From Dimargaris cristalligena (taxonomy: Eukaryota): a DNA stretch of 34,311 bases. The notes below the pieces were generated by a model that saw only the letters and a list, made by a program, of their open reading frames with translations, searched no databases and was not told the origin of the DNA. Of this stretch, positions 1 to 34,077 are shown one piece after another (positions within the stretch are counted from its first letter, which is position 1; every line of letters begins with the position of its first letter). The stretch covers positions 1 through 34,311 of the forward strand of contig ML002393.1 of assembly GCA_003614675.1 (NCBI GenBank). The letters are read 5' to 3'. A program made the position numbers and the translations under genes.

Positions 1-560
1 GGCTAGGCCCCCTATACAATGAGTTAAGTTATTCGCCGCTAGTTTGGCCCTAAATTTATCGGTGTATTTCTCCATTATCGCATGTATGTTTGCCACTGAT
101 TAGGCTGGTCTATAAACTTACGCGACTTCAGCAGCCCTAGATAGTGGCTAATTGCGAATGTACATTTCATTGTCATGGCAACAAGGCGAGTTAGCCGAGG
201 AAAAGTACACTCAATGACTAGGTAAATGGTATGGGCATAAAATGATGGCTCTCTTTACCTAATTTCACTAACCTATGCCCATCGTATCTGCTTTCGCACT
301 ACAGAGAATGCGTACTATACACTAATATCTAAAATAGAGCAGTTCAAACTACTATATTATACAATATAAAGGGGATTGGTCCGTTGTAACCATTGCACAA
401 CCATGGGTAGAGCGGCTGTTATCCTCCCCATGTCCTCCGATATTGTTTTTTTTCTGAAGGGGGGATGCCAAAATAATTCCCCATTGTGAAAATTGTTCAT
501 CCCTTCCGCCCTAGCGGACACTTGAATAAGCCGACTAACTAGGCCAGTCTCGAAAAATAG

Positions 561-570
561 TATATATAAG
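561..570 (+). promoter_or_regulatory. TATA box of paralog 1 (equivalents at 3928-3935 and 7211-7218)
   Basis: TATATATAAG / TATATAAG / TATAAATA at the aligned position, 190-200 nt before each ATG. Confidence 0.65.
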
Positions 571-752
571 TGCCAGGATTTCCCTGTTTACGCAAGTGTG
601 CCCCTTCATCCCCTCTTTAACTTATCAATAGATTCTGTTATTTACGATTCTATTTCCACTCTTGGAACAGGTCTGTTTATGCATTTATATAACTTGCATT
701 TGAGTTAACTACATTTTCGCTGGTCGGACCCTCTTCACCCCAACGTTAAGCC

Positions 753-1664
753 ATGCACATTTCCTATGCTGCTTTTCTTACACTAACTCTGGCCACGGGG
801 TATACCGTTGGTGGACGTCTTCGCCCACAAGCAGACACTGACAATGTCCCACTGGCATTGCTTTTAAACGGGCTATCGGGAAATTCACTGGACTCGGATT
901 TCCACGCTAAACCCTGGGGATTGTCGAATATTGACGAAGAAAGCGATGATAAACGCAGCGCGTATGGTGGCCAACGTCCTGAGATTGCGTTAGAGGACAT
1001 GACCTCGGAGTTTGCTGGGGGGGTTAGCAGCCATTATCTCCAAGCCGGTGATTCCCTTGAATCCGTATATTACGATGCACTCGATAGCAGCGCTTATCCC
1101 GAAGGTGTGAGTGAAATTAACGTCCAGCACTTCAATGACAATGGCTCCGGTGATAAAGAATCAGCACAGTCGTCCACAGCAACTACCCCCTCCCATTCAC
1201 AGGGCTGGCTCACCGATACTCCTGTAGGGCGCGAAAGTGAGATTAGCCTGGGAACTACCGTCAGCCAAATAATTAGCCAGATGCCTGCCCCGCCCAATCA
1301 CGAGATCAATCTCCATTCGCAGCAAATTCCCGACCATTGCCACACGTACCTCTCTCCACCGACTACGCCCAGTTCATCCGCGAACCTCGACATTGAAGAG
1401 AACAGCGGTACCCCGGTGATACCGATGGCTGGCAATGAAACGGTCAAAACGTCCATTAATGCCCGCCTCCCGAATGCGATCCCCCTACCTAAATCGACGC
1501 GTGGGGAGGAAAGGAAGCAAAGCAAAGATTTAGATCAAAAACCTGGTGGTTTGCGGGCTTGGTGCGTCCAACATAGCCGGGCTGAAGGCTGGCATGGTTG
1601 GACAGACCGGCGTAAGAACTGGATTAAATCACAAAAGGATAGAATCAAAAATAGTAGAGACTAG
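753..1664 (+). CDS. Secreted disordered orphan protein, tandem paralog 1 (303 aa)
   Basis: Intronless ORF; hydrophobic N-terminus (MHISYAAFLTLTLATGYTVG); acidic Ser/Thr-rich body; basic Trp-rich C-terminus; clear paralogy to 4128..5042 and 7409..8398; TATA about 190 nt upstream. Confidence 0.88.
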   Translation: MHISYAAFLTLTLATGYTVGGRLRPQADTDNVPLALLLNGLSGNSLDSDFHAKPWGLSNIDEESDDKRSAYGGQRPEIALEDMTSEFAGGVSSHYLQAGDSLESVYYDALDSSAYPEGVSEINVQHFNDNGSGDKESAQSSTATTPSHSQGWLTDTPVGRESEISLGTTVSQIISQMPAPPNHEINLHSQQIPDHCHTYLSPPTTPSSSANLDIEENSGTPVIPMAGNETVKTSINARLPNAIPLPKSTRGEERKQSKDLDQKPGGLRAWCVQHSRAEGWHGWTDRRKNWIKSQKDRIKNSRD

Positions 1665-4127
1665 AGATTTTCGACTTTGTACGCTATTCCTGGCTTTAAA
1701 TGTATTTCATTCCCTAAGAACCGACTTGCCTTGGGCTGCATTCTACGATAATACCAATACCAATATTGATATTGTTACATCCGCAGCCAATACAGAGTCA
1801 TACCCCAGGCGTCAAGGTAGCGAGACCTTAGTGGACCCCATGGACTCCACTGATACTGGTGTTCCAGCCGCAGCATCTTTGACTGAGGATTCATTCCAAC
1901 TACATGTGTCTAGCACGGGGACCCCTGGTGAATTATCACCCTCTGAGGATACCGCTAATGCTGTCATCTAGAACACTTTTCCAGAAGGTCCGATGAACAT
2001 ATTATTAACCTTCCTTGGCTATACTGGATGCCTGTGACGATTCATATAAATAAGCATTGGGTACATACTCTTGTTCTTCAGTTTACTAGCGCTCACATCG
2101 CTCCTGCAAGTCCATATTACTTATACTCGTTCCTTAATAAAAACCGCTCATACTTCACGCTCTTTAACAATATCGTTCCCCCCCCAGACCCACACATACA
2201 AGAGCATACACACGCCTACACAAGTCCACTATAGCAGTGCAATATTTTACCGACTAGTTGTTTTAAACATAGTCAGATCCTACCATTCCCATCTCATGTA
2301 TCTATCACTCCAATCTGTGCCCATGTCTTCCTATAGCAATACAGAACACACAGTAAAACATTAGGTATTTTGATTTAAATGAGAACTTAAAGAGGTGAGC
2401 AGGGCGTATATCGACCCGTAACAAATTTGTGAACTGCTCCTAATGCTGCTGACTTGATTGCCCTTGTTCTGGGAGAGCTATTATAGGATACAGTGTGGTC
2501 GTTAGCCAGGGTCAATTATCCGGAACTTGGATGATCATCTAAGCCTAACAGCGCAAATTAACATACACGTGGGTAACAACAATTACTCGCCTAATCGATG
2601 ATACAGACGAATCCGAATTAAAAGAGAAGGCGAAATATACGTCATATCCGGTTTGGTATGTTTCAATATATATATATATAACAATTTTATACTCATATTT
2701 CAAATAATCTCCCCGTAGAAAAGCATGTTTACGGCCAGGTCGAAGGGTGCTAAAATTAACAAACAATAGTCCTTTAACCACTAGTATATTTAGCGAAACA
2801 GAAATTCATAATTTAATACAGTTGTAATTCAAAAAGGTACAGCGCATTGAAAGCCCTTTTGGATGACTTTTATTTAAACGATAATACTCCAACGAGCAAC
2901 AAATGCCGAAAGAATTCAAGAATATTATTGACCAGCATTCCTTTAATAGGGCTTAGTTCGATACCGAATAAAAAACCATGTTGGATAAGTAGTGGATAGA
3001 GCAAAAAAAAATAGCAAAGGCCCAGCTGGTCAACATGTGGACTATGTCCCTACGTCCGATGCTTATAACGTTCCTCTTTCTGTATAGCAGCCCTACCCAC
3101 CAAAACCATCCACTATGCAATAATTAGAATTGTCCAGATGCGAAACTTCAGAAAGATACTTCACCAAAAATGGTTGGCCAAAGAACGGAGGTAGAATTCA
3201 ACGTCGTGTCTCGCCCAGTTCGACTGTCCTACTCGAAATGTCACTTGACAGTGAATAGGGTGCTACCTAATTGTGTGCCATCTGGAGTATAGGAGAAGAG
3301 CAGCGCCACTTCGTTATCCTCGACAGCAAAGTCCACTTCAACAGTCGGTTTTGGCCACCCGTTTTAGGCCGGGTCACCCATACAGTGAGTTAAGCTATTC
3401 GCCGCTAGTTTGGCCCTAAATATATCGGTGCATTTCTCCACCAGCGCGTCTATGCTCGCCACTAATTAGGCTGATCTATAAATTTACGCGGTTTCAGTCA
3501 CCTTGGATGGTGGCTAACTGCAAATGTACATTTCAATATCATAGCAATAAGGCGAGCTGGCCGAGGGAAAGTAAACTCAATGACTAGGCCAATGGTATAG
3601 GTATAAAATGATACCCCCTCTTCACTTTATTTCTCTAACCAACGCTCATCACATTTGCGGTCGCACTACAGAAAACGCGTACTATACACCGAGATCTAAA
3701 ATGTAGCAGTTCGGATTACTATATCAGACAATATAAAGGGGATTGGTCCGCTGTAACCATTGCACAACCATAGGTGGAGCGGCTGCATTCCTCCCCGTGT
3801 CTTCTCCGATATTGTTTTGGGGTGGAGAGCTCCAAAATAATTCCCCATTGTGAAAATTGTTCTTTCATTCCGCCCTAGTAGACACTCGTATAAGCCCAAC
3901 TAACTAGGCAGCTCTTGACAAATAGAATATATAAGTGTCAGGATTTTCCTGTTTATAAAATAGCCCCTCTACATTCTCTCTTTAACTTACCAATTGGCCC
4001 TCTGTTGTTTTTGACCCAATTCCGCTCTTGGAACAGCTCTGCCTTCGGAAATTTTGACCTTGTATTTGGGCTGCCTATATTCTGTCCGGTTGAAGCCTCT
4101 TTACCCTACTTACTCCAGCGTTAGGCC

Positions 4128-5042
4128 ATGCATACTTCCTACGCCACTCTTCTTTCACTGGCTCTGGCCACGGCGTATACCGCTGGTGGCAGTCTTCCCC
4201 CAAAGTTTAATATTGACGATCCCCCACTCGACTTTCTCCAAAAGGGGTTATTATCGGGGATTTTATTGAACCCACAAAGTGAGCCTGAACCCTGGCGCTT
4301 ATCAATAATTTTCGAAGAAAGCGACGATGAACACAGCACATTTGGCGGCCAACGTCCCCAGCAGGCGGTAGAGGGTACGGCCCCGGAGCTCGGTGGGACG
4401 GCGAGCAATAAGTATCTCCAACTCGGTGGTTCCCGTGAAACCATATACTACGACGCACTCGATAACAGCGCTTTTCCTACAACTCCGAGTAGTATCAACA
4501 CCCAGCCCTTGGATGACCATGACTCCAGCGATGAAGAATCGATCCATCCGTCGACGACAACTACCCCTTCCACTCTACGGGTTCATTTCCCCGCCAATTT
4601 AGCGGGGCGTAGAAGTAAGGATAGTTTAGAACTATCAATTAGGGAAATCATTAGCCAGTTGTCTCAACCGTCCTCTAACGATGCGCCTTCCTCTTCGCAG
4701 TTGGCGAGCAGCCTGTGCCCTGCGTACCTCTCCCCGCCGATTACGTCCAGTTCATCCGCGAACTTTGACGTTGAGGAGAACAGTGATACCCTGGCAATGC
4801 CAATGGCTGACAATGAAATGCTCGAAGCCTACTACAATGCCCAACTACTGAATGAAACCCCCCAACGGAAGTCTACGCGGGAGGATAGAAGGACACATAC
4901 CGAACGTCTAAATCAAAGGTTTAACGATTTTTCGACCTGGTGCGATCGGCATACGCGGGCAGAGGGTTGGCACGGCTGGAAGGGCCGGCGCAAGGGCTGG
5001 ATCAAGTCACAAAAGGATAAAATCATCAATAGTAGAGGCTAG
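4128..5042 (+). CDS. Secreted disordered orphan protein, tandem paralog 2 (304 aa)
   Basis: Colinear with paralog 1 along its whole length (signal peptide, LSIIFEESDD, IYYDALD, YLSPP, RAEGWHGW, WIKSQKD). Confidence 0.88.
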   Translation: MHTSYATLLSLALATAYTAGGSLPPKFNIDDPPLDFLQKGLLSGILLNPQSEPEPWRLSIIFEESDDEHSTFGGQRPQQAVEGTAPELGGTASNKYLQLGGSRETIYYDALDNSAFPTTPSSINTQPLDDHDSSDEESIHPSTTTTPSTLRVHFPANLAGRRSKDSLELSIREIISQLSQPSSNDAPSSSQLASSLCPAYLSPPITSSSSANFDVEENSDTLAMPMADNEMLEAYYNAQLLNETPQRKSTREDRRTHTERLNQRFNDFSTWCDRHTRAEGWHGWKGRRKGWIKSQKDKIINSRG

Positions 5043-7408
5043 AGTTATTCGACTTCATACGTTATCCCTGGCTCTTCATGGGCGTTATTCCCAAAAAGGA
5101 GCGACTTGGTTTCGGCTATATGATTCAATAATACTGACTCCCTTCCCCCACGAGCGCATTATTACGGCAATGCATCATTTTCGCCTTTAGCTGTTGGAAA
5201 TATAGCCAATCCTTATCACCGCCTTCTATTTCTAAGATATATCCCTTACAACCGTACCCACTCTAGTCCATAGCAATGCAGGGTATATAATAAACCCACA
5301 ATCATTTTTGAAATGATGACAAATAACCCGTAGATATGTCGATTTAAATGTAAAAAAGTGATAGTTGATAGGTGAAAAGTGGTGGGCAACGTTTGGGGAA
5401 CAGCAGCCGAATTCATAACGGGGTAGTTCTTGGAAAGTGGTCATTGGCGGTAGGCGAGCGGGGGGTCCTCCTGGGATTGGACTACCTGATATTCGTGAGC
5501 GGTTTCATATAGCCCAATAATGAACCACACAGACTGTGAATGAAAGATTGGCCCCGGCCCAATGTGGCTCACGTCCACTACCATACATTGGTATGTGCGT
5601 ACAAGGTCCGAGCCGGAAAAAAATTGAAGGGAATAGATGAAAACCAATTGTTACACGAAAAGAAAAAGCCTATTCAAAGGAAAACAATACCACGAAGGGC
5701 TAAGGGAGGCGTGAAGTGGACCGAGAAGGGGCGCCCTTAGCCCAAGTGCAATCGCCGAGTAGGCCTAATATCCAAAATGCCTATACTGTCGCCTATCCAC
5801 TTGAACTACAATGCACCACCCGAAGAACAATGAACGGCTACAATTCCAATCGACCATACTATACGACCCGGGTTAAAAATTAGCAAAAAAGTACACGACA
5901 TCCCGGCCGGATGATATCTTTGTAAATTGGCATTGAACTGCGTCAATTTCGGACCAGCTGTGTAAAGTTTTAAATAGTCTGGGTTAGTGCTCAGTGGCGA
6001 GAAATTTGTTTCCGACCAGTGGAATTGGCCCCATCCAATGGGGTTTTCGTTATTAAGTATGGTTGAACCTCCTCCATATGGGAGAAGTTCATCCAAGCTG
6101 TATAACGAAAAATCCATTAGATTCAGCCAATATTACTAGTGAAAAATACATTTCCCATATATTTTCCCATACACGTATAATGAATACCCTTATATAGCTG
6201 GGCCGAATTTCACCCATATTGACTAGCATCCCTCCAAATGGCCTCCACGCGATATAAATGTGAATTCTGGATAAATGGTGGATTGCGAAATAAAAAATGG
6301 TATAGAGCCGGGGGCCAACAAGCGGGGTATGACTCTATCTTCGATGTTTTTGGCAGGTTTGCTAATGTATAGAAGTCCAACCCACCAGGACCGCCCGATA
6401 GATACAATAATTGGAGGCCTCCGACTGCGAAATCAACCCCCCAAAAAATATTCCAACAATAGCTAGCCAAAGAAAGGGGGTTGAATTCAACACTGTACCT
6501 CGCCCAGTTCGACTGTCCCACTCGAAATGGCACTTGGCAGTGAATAGGGTGCTACCTAATTGTGTAACACCTGGAGTATAGGAAAAGAGCAGCGCCATCT
6601 CGCTACCCTCGACGGCGGAGTCCACTTCAACTGTCGGGTCTAGCCACCCGTTTTTTTGGATTAGGCTTCATTGAGCGAGTTGAATTATTCGACACTGGTG
6701 TCGTCGTAAATGTATCGGTGTGTTTCCCCTTCCTAATACTAACTATACTCACCACCACTTGGGCTGGTCCATAGTTTAACGTGTCTTTGGTCGCCCTGAC
6801 GTACGCCTGAGATCGAATAGATATTTTATTGGTATGGCAAAGAGGCGAGTTGAGCGAGGGGATGTAACTATAATGGTTAGGTCAAAGGTATAAGTATAAA
6901 ATGATGCCCTTCTTCCCTTATTTTGGCTAACCAATGCCTATCGCATAGTGTGTTGCACAATAGAAACCACGTACTGCATACTAACGTCCAAGGTGCGGTG
7001 ATTCCAGGATACCAGGTTGGGCTGTATAAAAAGGGATTAGGTCGTTGTAACCTATGTACAACCACTAGCAGAGCAGCTGCCCTCCTCCATTGCTTTTTTT
7101 TTGGAGGGTGAGGGTGCCTAAAAAAATCACGAATACGAAGGCAGTTCCTCCCTTCCGCTCTAGTCGACACTCGAATTAAGTTCACTTAATAGGCGAGGCT
7201 CAAGAAATAGTATAAATACCAGGATGTCCCTGTTTATAGTATAGCACCATTATATTATATTTTTAACTTATCAATAGTCACTCTGTTATTTTCAATATTT
7301 TCACCTCTATTCCACCCTTGGAACAGGTCTGTCTTCGCATTGGCATTACTTGCATTCGGGCTGCCTATATTTTCTTCAGCTGAACAAGCTTCACTCCAAC
7401 GTTAAGTC

Positions 7409-8398
7409 ATGCGTATTTCCTACACCATTCTTCTTTCACTGGCTCTAGCCACGGGGTATACCGTTGGTGGCTGTCTTCCCTCACGGTCTAAGCGCTACAC
7501 TGTCCCGCTCCCCAGTCTCACCAATGGTGAAGTGGAAAATGCTCTGTTATGCCGTTCTCCGATTGATGCTACGTTATCAGTCATTCACGAAGTGAGTGAG
7601 GATGACCTCAGCACGTATGGCGACCAAAACCCCGAATCGGCGGTAGAGGACATGGCATCGGGATTCGTTGAGGAGTTGGGCCATGGTGATATCCAGGCCG
7701 GTGATTCCCGTATAACCGTATTCTACGACGCACGCGGTGAAAGCGCATTTTCCAATGCTCTAAGTGACAGCAACTCCCAATACTTGGATGACAATGCTTC
7801 CAGCGACGATGAATCAGTCCATTCGTCAAACAGCATTACCCCTTCTTCCAGTCTACAGGGCCATTCGCCCTACCTCCTAGCAACACGTGAAAGGCTGGAT
7901 AGGGCCCGACCTGTCATCACGAAAATAGCCAAATCGCGATCTCTCCCGCTCATTACCGATATTCCGTCCCCTTCCCCGTCGCAGCTAACGAACAGACCTT
8001 GTCCCTGGTACCTTCCTTCTCCGACTTCGTCCAGTTCTTCCACGAGTGGCAGCGACGAGCCGAACAACAGCGGTGGTAGCCACGATTTAATGCTGAAGGC
8101 GATGGACGAGCAATTTTTTGAAACCAGCCAAGGTCGACTCCGGAAAGCCCCCCTCCAACCGAAATCGTTTCGGGCGGAGGCAAGACACCTACTCGAGAAT
8201 ACCAAGCAAAGGTGTCATGAGCTTGAAGAATGGGGCAAGCTACATTCTAAGAAAGAGGGCTGGCAAGGCTGGTCGGAAAGACGCAGAAACTCGGTGGCTG
8301 GGTCTGTCAACAAAATGGTGGTTAAGCCTGTCAGAAAAATGGTGGATGGCCTCGACTGGAAGATTTCGGCCATGCAAGCTAACAATAGCGGCTTTTAA
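7409..8398 (+). CDS. Secreted disordered orphan protein, tandem paralog 3 (329 aa, most diverged)
   Basis: Same signal peptide (MRISYTILLSLALATGYTVGG) and motif order: LSVIHEVSED, GDSRITVFYDA, WYLPSP, EGWQGWSERR. Confidence 0.87.
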   Translation: MRISYTILLSLALATGYTVGGCLPSRSKRYTVPLPSLTNGEVENALLCRSPIDATLSVIHEVSEDDLSTYGDQNPESAVEDMASGFVEELGHGDIQAGDSRITVFYDARGESAFSNALSDSNSQYLDDNASSDDESVHSSNSITPSSSLQGHSPYLLATRERLDRARPVITKIAKSRSLPLITDIPSPSPSQLTNRPCPWYLPSPTSSSSSTSGSDEPNNSGGSHDLMLKAMDEQFFETSQGRLRKAPLQPKSFRAEARHLLENTKQRCHELEEWGKLHSKKEGWQGWSERRRNSVAGSVNKMVVKPVRKMVDGLDWKISAMQANNSGF

Positions 8399-9415
8399 TG
8401 GGACTGCTTCATTCCCAAAACACACACACGCATAAATATATATATATATATATATTATTAAATACACGCGCGTGTGCACCTTTACTACAGCAGTACGACA
8501 TTTTATACATAGCCAACCATTCCCAGCACTACTTATACGTATCCCTTTAAACCGCACATAGCCATTCTCTCCCATAGCAATGCAGGACATGCAACAAACC
8601 CGCCATTTTTTATGACACATGACCAATAAAATCTAAGTACTTTGATTTAAATGGAATCAGGTGGAAAACAGTGTATGGATCGCCCACCCTACCACAAACT
8701 CTGTGACTGCTCTCCCTCAACGTTTCCTATTTGACACCTGTTCTGGGAAAGTGATCTCATAAGCCATAGAAGGGTGGGACCCCTGGTATTGGACTAATCA
8801 ATATTCGCCAGCAGTTTCATATATTATATAACCTATAGTGCTGAGCCAGATTTATCTGTGAGTAGCTTGATAAACTTCAACCCAGTGTTACTCGAACGAC
8901 AATTGAAGTGAATAGATGAAGAAGACCCACCAGCTGTCCCAGGCAAAGATATACGGTTTGGATGGAAACGATGCCGTCAACGGGCCAAAGAAAGTGTAAG
9001 TAAACCCGAAGAAGGGAATGGGGTGTCCTCTTTAGCGCAGTTTGGGGCTGTTGGAGCTTACACCTTTGCCACACTCACCATAACTTTCTCTATTAGGGCC
9101 AAATATATAAATACGTATGTGTATTTACAGCAAGTTCACATAGTTGATTAACCCTCTTGAACTTGCATGTCCCCGATCCATACCATCTATCCCAGTACAT
9201 CATCGCCTTTACTACACCACAGCCAGTTTGGCGGACCTTTAACCCCACTGGATTGTCCTGATTGACTTCGCTTGGATCGCTTGCCAACAACATTCCCTCC
9301 CCCCCAGACCGGCCTTTTGCTTTTTATATTTATTTTATATTTTGTTGTCATTTAACCCAAGTCCACCAACCACCACCACCGCACCCTCCGTATCCCCCCC
9401 CCCCTCACCACCACC

Positions 9416-10383
9416 ATGAGTATCCCTGTCGAATCGGCCCCTTCCCCCAGCAACCGTGCCCTGTTATTCACCAGTGCGTACCTGGTCTTACAACAGGGCA
9501 GTACCCTTCTCCGCACCCTCCTGCTTCCGCGCCCGGACCTCATGGTGCGCGAATCCCAGTACATCCCCGGAAGTACCATTGGCAAACACTTTCGCCACCT
9601 GTATGACCATTTCCGTTTGCTCTTGGAAGCCCTCCCAGCGAATGCCGCAGGGGCCACTTTGCCGAAGGAGGACCTCCTCCCCCCCAGCCCACCGCAAGTG
9701 TTCTACGATAAGAGGGATCGAATGGTACGTCACTTTTTAGCCTTGGTTTGATACGTTTATCCAGGAGGGGGGTTAAGACTCTTATATCCCCCCTCTCCCT
9801 TTCCCCGCCGCACCGCCACCTGCATTAACGCAATGGTCACACGGGTCGACTTCTGACTACGGCCATTATGACATCGCTGCTATTGACCGTCAGTTGATCT
9901 AATTATCGGCATTCTACCCAACCTTCTGATCAATAACTGCTTTAATACAAATACAGGTCCCTATGGAAAAGGACCCTAAGATCGCCGCTGAACTTATCGA
10001 GGACCTCGTTGAGAAGCTGCGGAAACTCGAGAATCGTACTGAACTTCCCCTGGAGGCTCCAATTCAGGTTCAAGCCCTCATAGATGGCAAGTCTAATTAC
10101 CAGCTACCCCTGGACTCCACTCTTGGTCGCGAACTTTGGTTCTGCGTCCACCACGCAAGTAAGTATTTATAAATATTCATAAATCTATATAAAATTATGT
10201 GTCCGGGATCTCCAGTAACCTTGACTAACCACCCATTGAACCACTTTTCCGCTGACTATGTAACCACCAGTCCACCATTACGCCATGATTAAAGTGGTTG
10301 GGGCAGAAAACGACATTCAAACCGCCAAAGACTTTGGGATGGCCCCATCCACGATCAAATATTATGATACTCTCTCTAGCTAA
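9416..10383 (+). CDS. DinB/YfiT-like putative metal-binding protein; exons 9416-9724, 9957-10158, 10271-10383
   Basis: GTACGT/GTAAGT donors and CAG acceptors keep frame. Motifs STIGKHFRHLYDHF, YDKRDR, STLGRELWFCVHHAIHHYAMI and FGMAPST are typical of DinB-family proteins. Confidence 0.85.
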
Positions 10384-23586: not shown

Positions 23587-25683
23587 ATGCTGTCGGTCAT
23601 TGTCTTTGTCCTGGGCCTCTTGGCCGCGGGACTTTACTTCGCCCGCCCGGACCTGTTCGGTGCTGCCGGCTCCTCCAAGACCCGCTCGGGTCGCACTTCG
23701 GGGGGCTCCAAGCCCGCCAAGGACCAGAGCAACAGTGGTAAGAAGGGTAACACTTCCGCCCGAAGCAGCGGTAAGAACACCCACGCTTCGCCCAACGGCT
23801 TTGCCGACAAGACCAGCGTTTCCACCAAGAAGGTGAAGACCGCTACTGGTTCCGTGGAGGCTCCCGCCGCCGAGGCCAAGACCGCCACGAAGGCTAGCCG
23901 TAACCGCAAGAAGAAGGGTGGCGCTAAGAAGACCAACGCCCAGTTCGCGGCCAAGGCGGCTAGTGAATCGGAAGCCGAAGAGTCCGAAGAGGAAGTTTTC
24001 TCCTCTCGCGTTGCTTCGAGCAACCCCTTCGATCTGTTGGACGCGTCTCGCGCTGCCAAGTCGGCTAAGAAGGGTAGGAAGGCCCCCGTTTCGGACGCCC
24101 CCGTCGCCGCTAGCTTTAGCCCTGAATTGCCGTCCCAGGCCCACGCTTCGCTGCCCGCGACCACCGCTCCAATCAAGGCCTCCCGGTCCTCCTCCAGCTC
24201 CTCCTCCTCGCCCGCCACCGATTCGGACGGCTTTGTTCCCGTTAAGCGCGAAGGTGGTAAGAAGAAGGGCAGCCAGGTCCCTTCCAAGACCGCCGCTGCC
24301 CCTGCTGCCCAGCCCGCCCCGAAGGTCGTGGAACGTTCCGCGGAAGCCGAAATTGTGACTGCTGCTCCCGTCTCCGAGCCGGTCACCCAGGACCTCGCCA
24401 CCGGTGAATTGGAACCCGTGGCCGTCGATGCCCCTGCTTCTGGCGTGTCTACCGCTCAGCTGACCCAGCTCGAATCCGAATTGAGCCAGAAGAACGCCGA
24501 GATTGACGCACTGAACCGCCGCCTCCAGCAGAGCCAGACCGAAAGCCAGAAGGTGTCTAAGAAACTTCAGGACATTCAGAACCGTGTGTCCCACCAGGAT
24601 ACCGACCGCCAGGTCTACATCAACCAGATCAAGACCTTGGAGAACAAGGTCGAATCGCTGAATTACACCAACCAGCTGATGTTCAAGCAACTGGGAACCA
24701 ACAAGGAAGCCGAGAAATCCATGAAGCTCTCCAACGCCCAATTGGAACTTACTCAACAGCGCCTGCGCGAGAACGAGACCACCCTGCGCAACGAGATTGA
24801 CCAGCTCACTCGGGCCATGGATCAGCTCCGCAGCGAACGTATGTCCTGGTACACTGATAAGGACTCGACCAACCGCCAGATTCTGGACCTGCAGTCGAAC
24901 CACTCGGCTCTGATGTCCGAGCTTAACACCAGCCAGGCCACTATCGCCAAACTCGGTGCCGATATCGAGGCCAATAAGCATGCCCTCACCCAGAAGGAAC
25001 ACGCTATTGTGTCGTTGGAATCCCTCGTCCAGTCATTCAAGCAGGAAGCCGAGGACCACCGCAAATTCCGCGGAGAATACGAGCAGTTGCTGCCCGAATT
25101 CCAGACCCTCGAGGACAAGCACCGTGCCCTGATCCAGAGCCACCAGGAGATCCAGGCCCAACTTCGCGATGCCCAGGACCAGTCCTCCAGCCGCCAGAGC
25201 CAGGCTTCCAACGAAGCCGCCGAGCTGCGCCAGGAGAACAGTCGCCTCAGCAGTACCGCTGATGAACTCCACAAGGAGCTCGCTGAAATCAAATCGGCCA
25301 ACCAAGCTAAGCTTGGGGAAGCCGAGAGTCAGCTGACTGTCGCTGTTAAGACTGCCGAGAGTGCCGAAGCCACTGTCCAGCAGTTGAAGGATGAACTGGC
25401 CGCGGCCCGCCGGGCCCAGACTGACGCCCAAGTGCAGATTGACGAAGAGCGTGGCGCTGCCAAATCTTTTGAATCTACCCTGGAGTCCACCCGTGCTGAA
25501 CTGAAGGAGGCCGATGCTGCCCAGGCCGCTGCCAAGACCGCTTTGGAGTCCGCCACCGCGGCCGACCAGGCCAAGGCGGACCAGATCACCCAGCTGACCA
25601 AGGAGCTGCAGACCGCTCGCTCCCTGATTGATCTGCTGAAGACCAAGAAGGTCGAGACCGCTCCTGTGGTTGAGGCCGAGTAA
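23587..25683 (+). CDS. Signal-anchored protein with Lys/Ala/Ser-rich disordered region and long coiled coil (698 aa; kinectin/p180-like architecture)
   Basis: Long ORF with high-expression codon bias; N-terminal hydrophobic helix; heptad-rich E/Q/L/K region from about aa 290; upstream GTAAGC donor at 23268 suggests a 5' UTR intron. Confidence 0.85.
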   Translation: MLSVIVFVLGLLAAGLYFARPDLFGAAGSSKTRSGRTSGGSKPAKDQSNSGKKGNTSARSSGKNTHASPNGFADKTSVSTKKVKTATGSVEAPAAEAKTATKASRNRKKKGGAKKTNAQFAAKAASESEAEESEEEVFSSRVASSNPFDLLDASRAAKSAKKGRKAPVSDAPVAASFSPELPSQAHASLPATTAPIKASRSSSSSSSSPATDSDGFVPVKREGGKKKGSQVPSKTAAAPAAQPAPKVVERSAEAEIVTAAPVSEPVTQDLATGELEPVAVDAPASGVSTAQLTQLESELSQKNAEIDALNRRLQQSQTESQKVSKKLQDIQNRVSHQDTDRQVYINQIKTLENKVESLNYTNQLMFKQLGTNKEAEKSMKLSNAQLELTQQRLRENETTLRNEIDQLTRAMDQLRSERMSWYTDKDSTNRQILDLQSNHSALMSELNTSQATIAKLGADIEANKHALTQKEHAIVSLESLVQSFKQEAEDHRKFRGEYEQLLPEFQTLEDKHRALIQSHQEIQAQLRDAQDQSSSRQSQASNEAAELRQENSRLSSTADELHKELAEIKSANQAKLGEAESQLTVAVKTAESAEATVQQLKDELAAARRAQTDAQVQIDEERGAAKSFESTLESTRAELKEADAAQAAAKTALESATAADQAKADQITQLTKELQTARSLIDLLKTKKVETAPVVEAE

Positions 25684-31765: not shown

Positions 31766-33197
31766 TTTTCACTGGGTACGGAAATGTAAAAAATCAAAAA
31801 AAAAAACTATAAACAGCAGCCAGGGAGGATTTCCTCTGCAGTACTAAACCGATTGCGAATATAAAGGTAAAATGTATAACAAAATGCCGGAGAGACAGTA
31901 TATAAATATGAGATTGGGGGGGGGGTGTACGAATAGCAATATTTGGTAGGAAAAGGGGTGTCGAATAAAGCTCAAGTTACAAAAAACCGATTATACGGAC
32001 AGAGAAAGACAGCGGTGGCCAGTTGATATACCAGATATGATAATGCTAGTTCACTCGTCCCTTGTTCTCACCATGGCAAGTGGGGATCCCGCAAGTAGAG
32101 AGCGGGCCAATAATGGCCTATTCCGCCTAGGCCAAGAGAGTTGGCCAAACCTACTCAGGGCAAACCGGCTCATAGAACAGGGGCAGGTAACATAGCCACG
32201 GGAGTGGCTATAGGATGTGGGGGATGCGTGTCATGGGCGGGGTCAAGGAACACTTCGAAAGCAATGACCTCGATTACATGCATACGGTGGGTTACAGATC
32301 ATATACTTGTGTGTCATGTAGTTTGAACATGTTTCAAAGGAATTCAGTGGGTAAGTAGCACATTTAGGCCGCACTGGTCAGTTTAGCACATGGCTGGAGA
32401 CGGGGGATACTTGATAAAAAAAAGGGGGCATATCATATATCAATGTCGAGAGAGGACCATCCCCGCGGCCATGTGCCGTGTAACGTTCTCTGGCGAAGAG
32501 TCTGAGAAATGGAATACAATCCTCGCTCGAATGGAAAAATAGTCAAGAATTATTGGCGTTCCCATCGGGTGTTCTAAGTCCAGTTTCCTCTTTTGTCAAC
32601 ATGTTGTAGTCAGCGGAGGCTGGGGACGTATAAAGGATGTACTGCTATGGGTATGCTCAAATCGGCCCTCATGAAACACTCAACAAATTTTCGTGCGGTC
32701 AAAGGCAATTAACGGTATCATAATATCCCTGTTACATCACGGCCGTTGCTACCGTACTGGTCTAATAGGACGAATAGAGGTCATTTCGCATCATCCGGCT
32801 AGGTATTGTAGCCTACCCCGTCAACCAATTAATCCATTGTAGGAGCTTATTATTAGCGGAAGTGCGATGGTCTACTTATATTTGTGATAAGTGGGTGGTT
32901 TCATAGGATTATTATTAGCTAAAACTAACTGCAGATACCGGTGCCGTATTTTTAGGTAAGACTATTCCCCAAACATGGCTTCGAAAAAAAATAAGTAATT
33001 AACTGGTATTAAAGCCGTTCACCACCTTTAGGCGATGAAACAGTTGTATAGGTTGGCAATATCGGCATATCAGCTGGAACCTCAGTTTAGATTGTGAAAA
33101 TTCCAAGGTATATAGTTAAGCCCTTTGTTCGGCTTGGGTGAAGTCAGTCTCTCTAGCAGAGACAACCTCCTGGCCTCAATCCCTTATATATAGGCCG

Positions 33198-34077
33198 TTT
33201 GGACCAACCTCCCTGCTGGGGCCTAGTTCTCTTCCACCTAGCAGGGCCACTCTGAAACCTACTGGTCCCCTGGGTCCTGCCACTACAGATATATAGTGGT
33301 TATTTACATTTCCAGACCTGAGTTTCTTATTAGTAATAGTATTTTTGAATATATCTATTGTATATCATCTTTGTGAGCTTTATGCTCTTCTTATGGTTTT
33401 TTTTTTATCTTTAGTAATTGAATTATGATTATTACATACTCAGTGGGCTTAATAATTAGGGATAATAGAGTTGACCTAAATTTAGTTTCTAGATGCCATT
33501 ATCACCTAAACTCATTAATAAGAGTTGGGAATATTGCCTAGATCAACTACTCTTAGTCCATTAAGAGTCCTAAGGATAGGCTTCTAATAGTAGGCAGGGC
33601 TTAGACTCAGCTAAGTGGGCTACTAGCATTAGGTATGGGCTATGGTACTAACTAATAAAGGCTATGGTAGTTATATATAAGGGATATACAGTAGGTATGC
33701 TTACTAGTTAGTATAAGGGGGAGTGAGTGTATATAGAGTTTATTATGGGTAAACTAAGGGGTAAGAATAAGTTAAAGAATCTAACTAATCCCAATGGGGC
33801 CTAGTTATATATAAGCAGGGATAACTCCAGAGGGAGGTCCTAAGGTAAGGATACTACTAAGACTAAGGTATAGGTAAATAGGCTAGCCAGATGGCCATGT
33901 GTATCTGGAAGACTCTGATGGTAACCAGAAGAGTCTTTGGATTAGCACTTGAGTGATTAGTGTAAAGTGGTGGAGTCCAGAAGGGGAAGGGTTATATAAT
34001 ATAGGGTAATCCTATAGTACTGGGGGTGACTATAGGAAGGTTAATATGGTACTATAAGGCCTAATTGTTAGAATAAC
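33198..34077. mobile_element. Degenerate repeat/transposon relic, family not identifiable
   Basis: About 880 nt in which I found no CpG, with many TAG/CTA/TAA words and no ORF, unlike the flanks. Confidence 0.45.

Follow-up and report, generated by a model that had tools for sequence, protein, structure and literature searches.

A species-restricted tandem family of candidate secreted, disordered proteins with docking motif-like patches in the mycoparasite Dimargaris cristalligena

The effector clusters of smuts and rusts exemplify the clustered, lineage-specific genes for candidate secreted effectors of biotrophic fungi and oomycetes. The standard signature of such clusters combines orphan status, tandem arrangement, fast evolution, a signal peptide-like start of the product and conserved promoters. 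Short linear motifs (SLiMs) have been described in the disordered RxLR effectors of Phytophthora (PMC9045269). A secreted mimic of the FFAT motif (named for a pair of phenylalanines within an acidic tract) has been validated in Toxoplasma gondii, where the protein ROP1 (TgROP1) tethers the host endoplasmic reticulum (ER) and binding to VAP has been shown (PMC12669048). FFAT-mimic effectors are also reported from bacteria (Chlamydia IncV, Xanthomonas XopM, Pseudomonas HopN1 and Coxiella CbEPF1), as is a norovirus example, NS1/2. Viral mimics of the LxxIxE motif, which docks proteins on the B56 subunit of the phosphatase PP2A, include Ebola NP, the integrase of human T-lymphotropic virus 1 (HTLV-1) and the core protein of hepatitis B virus (HBV) (PMC10970375). 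Here we describe a tandem array of three paralogous genes, denoted A, B and C, in a stretch of 34,311 nucleotides from Dimargaris cristalligena (assembly GCA_003614675.1, contig ML002393.1, positions 1 to 34,311 of the forward strand; hereafter "the window"). Our preferred reading, which we hold tentatively and would not yet call probable, is that they belong to a species-restricted, tandemly amplified family of secreted host-interaction (effector-type) proteins of this haustorial mycoparasite or a very close strain.

Dimargaritales are parasites of Mucoromycota and of some Ascomycota, which they exploit via an appressorium and a haustorium (PMC9866270), and D. cristalligena is regarded as a biotroph on other fungi that can also be cultured axenically if the medium is supplemented (PMC6784888). 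This parasitic lifestyle is what the effector inference of a first-pass annotation of the same DNA, made from the sequence alone, requires. That annotation had described three paralogs with signal peptides, acidic disordered bodies, short conserved islands and basic Trp-rich C-termini, had recognised in them no described family, and had proposed that they are translocated scaffolds that dock PP2A-B56, VAP/Scs2 and calcineurin and bring a phosphatase to ER contact sites. In the literature searched we found no description of a Dimargaritales effector or translocated protein, and nothing on how early-diverging haustorial mycoparasites manipulate their fungal hosts; Dimargaris is unmentioned in the main text of PMC9391592.

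The three genes are uninterrupted open reading frames (ORFs) on the plus strand (Table 1), located exactly where the first-pass annotation had placed the paralogs (753-8398), and their products align end to end. Identity to A is 49% for B and 37% for C, and 83 of the 331 columns of the alignment of all three are invariant. The genes form a head-to-tail tandem array with a period of 3.28-3.38 kb, in which each unit comprises a common segment of ~0.75-1 kb of upstream DNA, the coding sequence (CDS) and ~100 nt of downstream DNA; the rest of the spacer (~1.3 kb) could not be aligned from unit 1 to unit 2. With B as the query, tblastn against the window recovered A (E 6e-86) and C (E 3e-41) and no further family copy. 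Because the window begins within the upstream part of unit 1, the array may extend past it. The spacers were also inspected for hidden genes and transposons, and none of their nine ORFs (101-145 aa) contains any Pfam family.

A, B and C are real genes under weak purifying selection. Gap runs in multiples of three make up 1/1 (A-B), 5/7 (A-C) and 6/8 (B-C) of those in the CDS alignments, compared with 1/7, 2/10 and 4/11 of those in the upstream alignments. The ratio of nonsynonymous to synonymous divergence (dN/dS), a check suggested in the first-pass annotation and carried out here pairwise by the Nei-Gojobori method with bootstrap 95% intervals, is 0.57 (0.41-0.77), 0.58 (0.40-0.80) and 0.73 (0.54-0.98); all intervals are below 1, and so are the ratios in at least 98% of the bootstrap replicates for every pair. 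Between A and B, dN/dS is 0.09 over alignment columns 281-320 and 0.30 over columns 256-331, from which it follows that the C-terminal frame is translated. Codon use of the three genes matches the other genes of the window best in the annotated frame, and an in-frame TAA stands two codons 5' of the ATG in the upstream sequences of A and C. The GC content is 0.51-0.52 in the CDS versus 0.40-0.44 in the flanks, and GC at third codon positions (GC3) is 0.50-0.55 versus 0.73-0.81 in the nearby ribosomal, carrier and coiled-coil genes.

A search of 1,835,955,588 representative proteins with a profile of A, B and C (E <= 0.001) retrieved four proteins: P0004, which corresponds to B, P0005 and P0006, which are public models of A and C, and P0007 (H4R33_006317), a partial protein of 180 aa encoded on a different, 13-kb contig, which is 53% identical to A and represents a fourth paralog. 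A word-indexed search of a 5.8-billion set found the same four proteins among 8000 scored candidates. The family has at least four members, three of them in the window, and appears, as far as the searched databases go, to be confined to one species. Pfam yielded no credible family for A, B or C, cell-wall families included (the first-pass annotation had named a match of the latter kind as an argument against its own proposal); only DUF3323 (E 0.26) and ARS2 (E 0.11) were seen, both below threshold. PDB sequences gave no match at E <= 1, and the ESM Atlas offered no usable feature match for B or for the tail of A, with structural neighbours at template modelling (TM) scores of <= 0.24. Judged by these comparisons, the proteins have no homology to any described family, in line with the earlier claim that the family is undescribed.

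Over most of the upstream DNA, which we take as promoter plus 5' untranslated region (UTR), units 1 and 2 share 79-87% identity, and a 65-nt block in it reaches 89%. The Jukes-Cantor distances of this DNA for the three pairs are 0.23, 0.43 and 0.44, to be compared with synonymous divergences (dS) of 0.63, 1.04 and 0.77 and nonsynonymous divergences (dN) of 0.36, 0.60 and 0.56 in the CDS. Thus, the upstream region is better conserved than synonymous sites, and its 752 nt are no worse conserved than nonsynonymous sites. A scan of positions 1-10000 against Rfam found no family, and the upstream region contains no ORF conserved between units. In our reading the conservation reflects constrained, shared promoters that would drive fast-diverging products, and nonsynonymous divergence equal to or greater than that of the promoters would be effector-like evolution; local gene conversion may be an alternative cause of the upstream conservation. 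In the conserved DNA the TATA-type box is followed by CCAGGAT.TCCCTGTTTA. The fourth paralog, P0007, appears mosaic, as residues 31-60 and 136-165 are closer to B but residues 61-135 to A, which suggests recombination or gene conversion among the copies.

Analysis of the protein sequences reveals a common anatomy, composed of a candidate signal peptide, an acidic body and a basic tail. In A and B the N-terminal 21-25 residues are devoid of D, E, K and R, and C has R2. The best Kyte-Doolittle mean in this region is 2.05-2.81 over eight residues and 1.10-1.43 over 19 residues. The hydrophobic cores (AFLTLTLA, LLSLALAT and ILLSLALA) are followed by a polar stretch with small residues (A-T-G and V-G-G), and no other hydrophobic window exceeds 1.0, except for a short PL..LL patch at 32-45. 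By these features the N-terminus resembles a cleavable signal peptide more than a membrane-spanning segment. Reading of the A, B and C sequences revealed no HDEL-type or hydrophobic glycosylphosphatidylinositol (GPI)-type C-terminus; the C-termini are basic and hydrophilic. The net charge of residues 25-240 is -23, -21 and -17, and from residue 240 onward +8, +9 and +10. Ser accounts for 12-15% of the residues, each copy has 2-4 Cys, and N-x-S/T sequons number 1-3 per copy at positions that are not conserved. The C-terminal 65 residues contain 13-17 K+R versus 7-8 D+E and hold four of the 5-6 Trp residues of the protein.

The body is acidic and Ser/Thr/Pro-rich and is predicted to be intrinsically disordered. 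The AlphaFold2 (AF2) model, calculated from an alignment of only four sequences, has a mean predicted local distance difference test (pLDDT) score of 39, with residues 1-265 below 50 and a tail helix (283-301) as the only part at 70-79. The model in the ESM Atlas has a pLDDT of 0.44, and by the charge-hydropathy boundary the mature forms of A, B and C all class as disordered, C only by a small margin. The signal peptides, acidic disordered bodies and basic Trp-rich C-termini of the first-pass annotation are therefore all borne out, the first as a set of signal peptide-like sequence features and the second as a set of concurring predictions. Several other candidate features were tried and rejected. 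The idea of an amphipathic helix in the tail was dropped, as the hydrophobic moment of the last helix lies outside the top windows in A and B. No dibasic processing site, RxLR-like motif or Y/F/WxC motif following the signal peptide is conserved in the alignment. Assignment to the structural wall proteins of fungi (GPI-anchored or repeat-linked mannoproteins) was rejected given the lack of a hydrophobic GPI tail, of visible internal repeats and of a Pfam match.

To describe the distribution of conserved positions, we ranked non-overlapping 10-column windows of the alignment by the number of invariant columns. The best are the N-terminal hydrophobic segment and EGWHGW..RR (7/10 each) and LSxIxE with the following acidic residues (6/10), and there are further ones with 5/10 each, namely [VI][YF]YDA, GGQRP..A.E, YLxxP..SS and DD..SSD.ES. 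The four islands named by the first-pass annotation (LSxIxE, [VI][YF]YDA, YLxxP and the basic C-terminus) are indeed among the six top windows, but unnamed ones, including TTPS and KS.R, are as conserved, and the clustering of invariant columns is modest, being reached in 150 of 5000 shuffles. The occurrence of the individual motifs by chance was estimated from composition-matched shuffles and from 45 control ORFs of the window (7,694 residues).

The first island conforms to the docking motif of B56. The published rule is [LMFI]xx[ILV]xE, with L preferred at position P1, I preferred at P4 and an invariant E at P6, and affinity is raised by phosphorylated or acidic residues at P2 and P7-9 (PMC10970375). 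A and B read L-S-x-I-x-E-E-S-D and C reads L-S-V-I-H-E-V-S-E, in agreement with every one of these sequence rules in 3/3 full-length copies, as the earlier match to PP2A-B56 implied; the fragment P0007 does not reach this region. The pattern L..I.E occurs in 0.06-0.08 of shuffled proteins and once in the control residues. The motif sits in a region predicted to be disordered (pLDDT <50), and the signal peptide-like N-terminus argues against a location in the producer's own cytosol.

The second island resembles the FFAT motif, which consists of six core residues and an acidic tract and has the canonical form EFFDAxE, with [FY][FY...]-[D/E/S/T]-[A/C/S/T] at core positions 2-5, an acidic position 1 and an acidic or polar position 7; position 1 is the least constrained, and the tract, expressed as the net negative charge of the six residues before and the two after the core, is weighted most, at 1.5 units (PMC3261905). 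The sequence [FY][FY]DA, which matches core positions 2-5, is present at the aligned site in 4/4 members and found in 0.1-0.5% of shuffles and in none of the control ORFs. Position 1 is a sub-optimal V/I in 4/4 members; A, B and P0007 carry D at position 7, where C has G, preceded by R at position 6. The flanks have a charge of -2, 0, -1 and -2 (A, B, C and P0007, respectively) and contain 3-5 Ser/Thr residues, the phosphorylation of which could add charge. The relaxed FFAT pattern with which the TgROP1 mimic was identified (PMC12669048) is matched by 4/4 members at the aligned site, but also by 22-42% of shuffles. What stands of the proposed VAP match is thus a core that the four members share and that is rare by chance, next to a sub-optimal position 1 and a weak acidic tract. 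At the site of the second, weaker FFAT-like stretch of C, B and P0007 have E.YYN; A has lost the stretch.

The third island, YLxxP, had been linked to calcineurin. We searched for L.[LIVAPM]P, which we take to be the ELM form of the calcineurin LxVP pattern, and at the aligned position found it in no members but A and B, since C (YLPSP) and P0007 (HLSPS) deviate from it; 35-45% of shuffles contain the pattern, and the control ORFs yielded 19 matches. No PxIxIT-like site was found in any copy. Calcineurin docking was rejected on these grounds, the pattern being lost in 2/4 members and common by chance.

Table 1. Coordinates of the three paralogs and of their features in the window
Feature	Copy A	Copy B	Copy C	Strand	Remarks
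Paralog A, intron-free CDS	753..1664			+	303 aa, P0001
Paralog B, intron-free CDS		4128..5042		+	304 aa, P0002
Paralog C, intron-free CDS			7409..8398	+	329 aa, P0003; most divergent copy; C-terminus ~25 residues longer
Candidate signal peptide, codons 1-21	753..815	4128-4190	7409-7471	+	uncharged run, most conserved window
LSxIxE+acidic island, A residues 57-66	921..950	4299-4328	7574-7603	+	L..I.E once per full-length copy, aligned
FFAT-like island, A residues 105-111	1065..1085 (VYYDALD)	4443-4463 (IYYDALD)	7718-7738 (VFYDARG)	+	
Second, weaker FFAT-like stretch DEQFFETSQ, residues 233-241			8105..8131	+	C only; wide pattern of PMC3261905
YLxxP island, A residues 199-203	1347..1361	4725-4739	8009-8023	+	
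Basic Trp-rich C-terminal 65 residues	1467..1661	4845-5039	8201-8395	+	contains invariant EGW.GW..RR
Conserved upstream region, taken as promoter and 5' UTR	1..752	~3111-4127	6396-7408	+	B and C: stretches homologous to that of A
TATA-type box, ~190 nt 5' of ATG	563-570	3928-3935	7211-7218	+	TATAAATA before C

Comparison of the ORFs with the public entries revealed differences in the gene models. P0004, P0006 and P0007 bear NCBI names from D. cristalligena. P0004 (hypothetical protein H4R33_004197) differs from B by one residue. P0006 (H4R33_004198), a 190-aa model, matches C at 158/159 positions over residues 1-159, after which the model is cut. P0005, a 388-aa model, matches A at 280/298 positions over the aligned stretch and has a 7-residue gap and a frame-changed end; past the gap it enters an overlapping ORF of 125 aa at 1594-1971 (+). 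The 21-nt stretch absent from P0005 has no obvious GT...AG ends in the sequence of the window, therefore the public models or the underlying assemblies differ from the window. The constraint between A and B is strongest in the C-terminal frame, which favours the plain ORF of A over P0005, as the latter leaves that frame. P0005 is labelled as a protein from Syncephalis pseudoplumigaleata (SYNPS1DRAFT_30622, on a 3,267-bp contig). This species and D. cristalligena were sequenced in the same single-cell study (PMC6784888), and because a neighbouring gene of the array points to Dimargaritales, the label looks like sample carry-over and not like a second species or gene transfer.

The neighbour in question (23587-25680, +) encodes an Ala/Ser/Lys-rich protein of 698 aa; it contains an N-terminal segment that is hydrophobic and a long region of coiled coil, with a weak match to PUMA_CC (E 5e-4, below the Pfam cut-off). 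Among the matches listed it has one relative, a protein from Tieghemiomyces parasiticus with 38% identity, and no D. cristalligena entry. Thus, a second genus of Dimargaritales is at least partly in the database, yet without a member of the family. The other genes of the window are ordinary and encode LRR, mitochondrial carrier, L7Ae, S19e and RRM proteins. Near the 3' end of the window, at 33183-33815, three of its seven TATATAAG matches lie within ~630 nt.

Orphan status, tandem amplification, weak constraint, disorder, the signal peptide-like start and conserved promoters are the reasons for which we favour secreted host-interaction proteins. Each gene would be transcribed from its own conserved TATA-type promoter and give rise to a protein of ~300 residues with a cleavable-looking signal peptide, followed by an acidic, Ser/Thr/Pro-rich disordered body and a basic, Trp-rich, partly helical tail. 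The co-regulated proteins would be released at the interface between parasite and host and, since they are Cys-poor and disordered, would more likely act via the short conserved peptide patches than via a fold. A true signal peptide at the N-terminus, expression of the genes during parasitism and contact of their products with the host are inferred. A number of observations weigh against this scenario. The alignment comprises four sequences from one species, which makes the conservation of any island weak evidence. The core of the candidate signal peptide is only moderately hydrophobic, and A and B lack a basic n-region. The array adjoins housekeeping genes (for L7Ae, S19e, RRM and mitochondrial carrier proteins), not a repeat-rich compartment, and the public models of A and C (P0005 and P0006) depart from the uninterrupted ORFs. 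Finally, acidic Ser clusters, B56-type and FFAT-like motifs and a basic tail are all usual marks of proteins in the cytosol or nucleus, so that the protein may stay within the cytoplasm of the parasite itself.

The alternative that survives best, albeit rather unlikely in our opinion, is that the proteins remain outside cells as acidic, disordered proteins of the matrix, or associated with the wall, at the hyphal or haustorial surface, where they would probably be glycosylated or phosphorylated, with the cytosolic-looking motifs being coincidental. Most secreted fungal proteins act outside cells, and with the signal peptide-like N-terminus go S/T/P-rich segments open to O-glycosylation (SSTATTPS, TTPSSS), the 1-3 sequons per copy and a strong segregation of charge; the acidic body could bind polycationic wall polymers or minerals, and the basic Trp-rich tail acidic polymers or membranes. 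However, Pfam shows no match to a wall or adhesin family, there is neither a GPI-type tail nor internal repeats, the positions of the sequons are not conserved, and the 2-4 Cys provide nothing to stabilise a disordered chain against extracellular proteases.

We place second, as an unlikely explanation, that the proteins are not secreted at all. The N-terminus would then be a membrane anchor (N-out, C-in) or no signal, and the family would represent an endogenous, lineage-specific tether or phosphatase adaptor of the parasite's cytosol, where acidic Ser clusters combined with a basic tail are common in disordered proteins, as they are in the nucleus. This would remove the paradox of motifs and compartment without a translocation step; the uncharged run of 21-25 residues could span a membrane, and it is followed by basic residues in A (R22, R24) and C (R26, K28, R29). 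On the other hand, the flank after the run is net negative in B, the 19-residue hydropathy mean of only 1.10-1.43 lies below usual transmembrane values, and the segment ends in a polar stretch with Gly or Pro like that of a signal peptide c-region. It would also be unusual for housekeeping tethers to diverge rapidly, to be tandemly amplified and to be confined to one species.

An extension of the secreted host-interaction reading to motif mimicry is doubtful, and we rank it below both explanations just discussed. According to this proposal the proteins would be secreted from the Dimargaris haustorium and enter the cytosol of the Mucorales host, where the LSxIxE patch, of high-affinity type, would recruit PP2A-B56, the FFAT-like YYDA patch (two in some copies) would dock the proteins on VAP/Scs2 at the ER, and the basic Trp-rich tail would supply affinity for membranes or uptake, so that a phosphatase of the host would be brought to contact sites of the ER or haustorium. 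No mechanism more specific than this entry and double docking can be read from the sequence. We keep the proposal under consideration because low Cys content and disorder fit a cytosol better than the outside of cells, because two motif matches out of three are good by published rules, and because other intracellular parasites are known to use secreted FFAT mimics.

It is improbable that A, B and C are young orphan genes of little or no function, i.e. recently duplicated ORFs that drift near-neutrally and contain the motifs by chance. The high dN/dS of 0.57-0.73, the absence of detected homologs and the weak codon bias (GC3 of 0.50-0.55 versus 0.73-0.81) agree with such an origin, but the three frames, 303-329 codons long, are still open at a dS of 0.6-1.0 and have in-frame indels, every pair shows a dN/dS below 1 in no fewer than 98% of bootstraps, with values of 0.09-0.30 at the C-terminus of A and B, and the promoters with their TATA boxes are conserved. 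The complete scaffold model of the first-pass annotation, in which docking to calcineurin accompanies that to PP2A-B56 and VAP/Scs2, is very improbable: a fungal host should possess all three partners, Cys-poor disordered proteins suit cytoplasmic better than apoplastic action, secreted FFAT mimics are established in other parasites (TgROP1, bacterial and norovirus examples), in the B56 patch of 3/3 copies P1 is L, P4 is I, P6 is E and both P2 and P8 are S, with an acidic residue at P7 and/or P9, and the FFAT-like core is present in 4/4 members and rare by chance, but the calcineurin leg is unsupported (absent from C and P0007, 35-45% of shuffles, 19 control matches), the FFAT tract is weak (-2, 0, -1, -2) with V/I at position 1 and R and G in C, the motifs were selected post hoc among some eight conserved islands in four sequences of one species, and in the literature searched no protein translocation is described for Dimargaritales.

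If motif mimicry proved true, the order would gain its first described effector mechanism, and fungi their first FFAT/B56 double mimic. Such mimicry would extend from viruses, bacteria, apicomplexans and oomycetes to parasitism of fungi on fungi and would link a phosphatase to ER contact sites of the host at the haustorium. The array is a compact candidate set of three intron-free genes with their own promoters and two sharply defined peptide patches, and the predicted partners, B56/Rts1 and VAP/Scs2, are conserved and easily assayed in yeast. Should the motif reading fail, the family would still provide a marker set of fast-evolving, species-restricted, candidate secreted proteins for a poorly known lineage.

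In comparison with known systems, the family appears to share, in part, the sequence-level characteristics of TgROP1, of the bacterial FFAT mimics and of the viral LxxIxE mimics. Like TgROP1, its members are proteins of a eukaryotic parasite that would use the secretory pathway, judging by their signal peptide-like N-termini. The TgROP1 motif DDTFHDALQE and the family's ES-VYYDALD-S have a common x-[FY]-x-D-A-L core, in which FHDAL is very like YYDAL. The two are not homologous in sequence, however, and TgROP1 resides in the vacuole membrane and faces the host cytosol, whereas the Dimargaris proteins have no hydrophobic segment other than the N-terminal one; binding to VAP has been shown for TgROP1 and is a prediction for the family. 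The likeness to the bacterial FFAT mimics is one of concept, i.e. a pathogen protein in the host cytosol that borrows a VAP-binding motif; those effectors are unrelated in sequence and use bacterial secretion machines, and for some of them a function at contact sites has been demonstrated.

The LxxIxE patch of the family, with L at P1, I at P4, E at P6, Ser at both P2 and P8, and acidic residues following the core, is like that in the KARD region of BubR1 (LSPIIEDS), and this arrangement corresponds to the form described as high-affinity (PMC10970375). Unlike the known LxxIxE carriers, which are cytosolic or nuclear proteins or viral proteins made in the host cytosol, the Dimargaris proteins have a signal peptide-like N-terminus. 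Disorder and candidate SLiMs are features in common with the RxLR effectors of Phytophthora. With the effector clusters of biotrophs the family has in common a candidate signal peptide, the lack of domains, tandem arrangement, restriction to a lineage, fast divergence with a conserved N-terminus and promoter, and a haustorial producer; it is unlike typical small Cys-rich effectors in that its members are larger and more acidic and show no recognised uptake motif, and in that the host is another fungus. By analogy, we regard the family as lineage-specific candidate secreted effectors, for which the motif model, if confirmed, would represent SLiM mimicry directed from one fungus at another.

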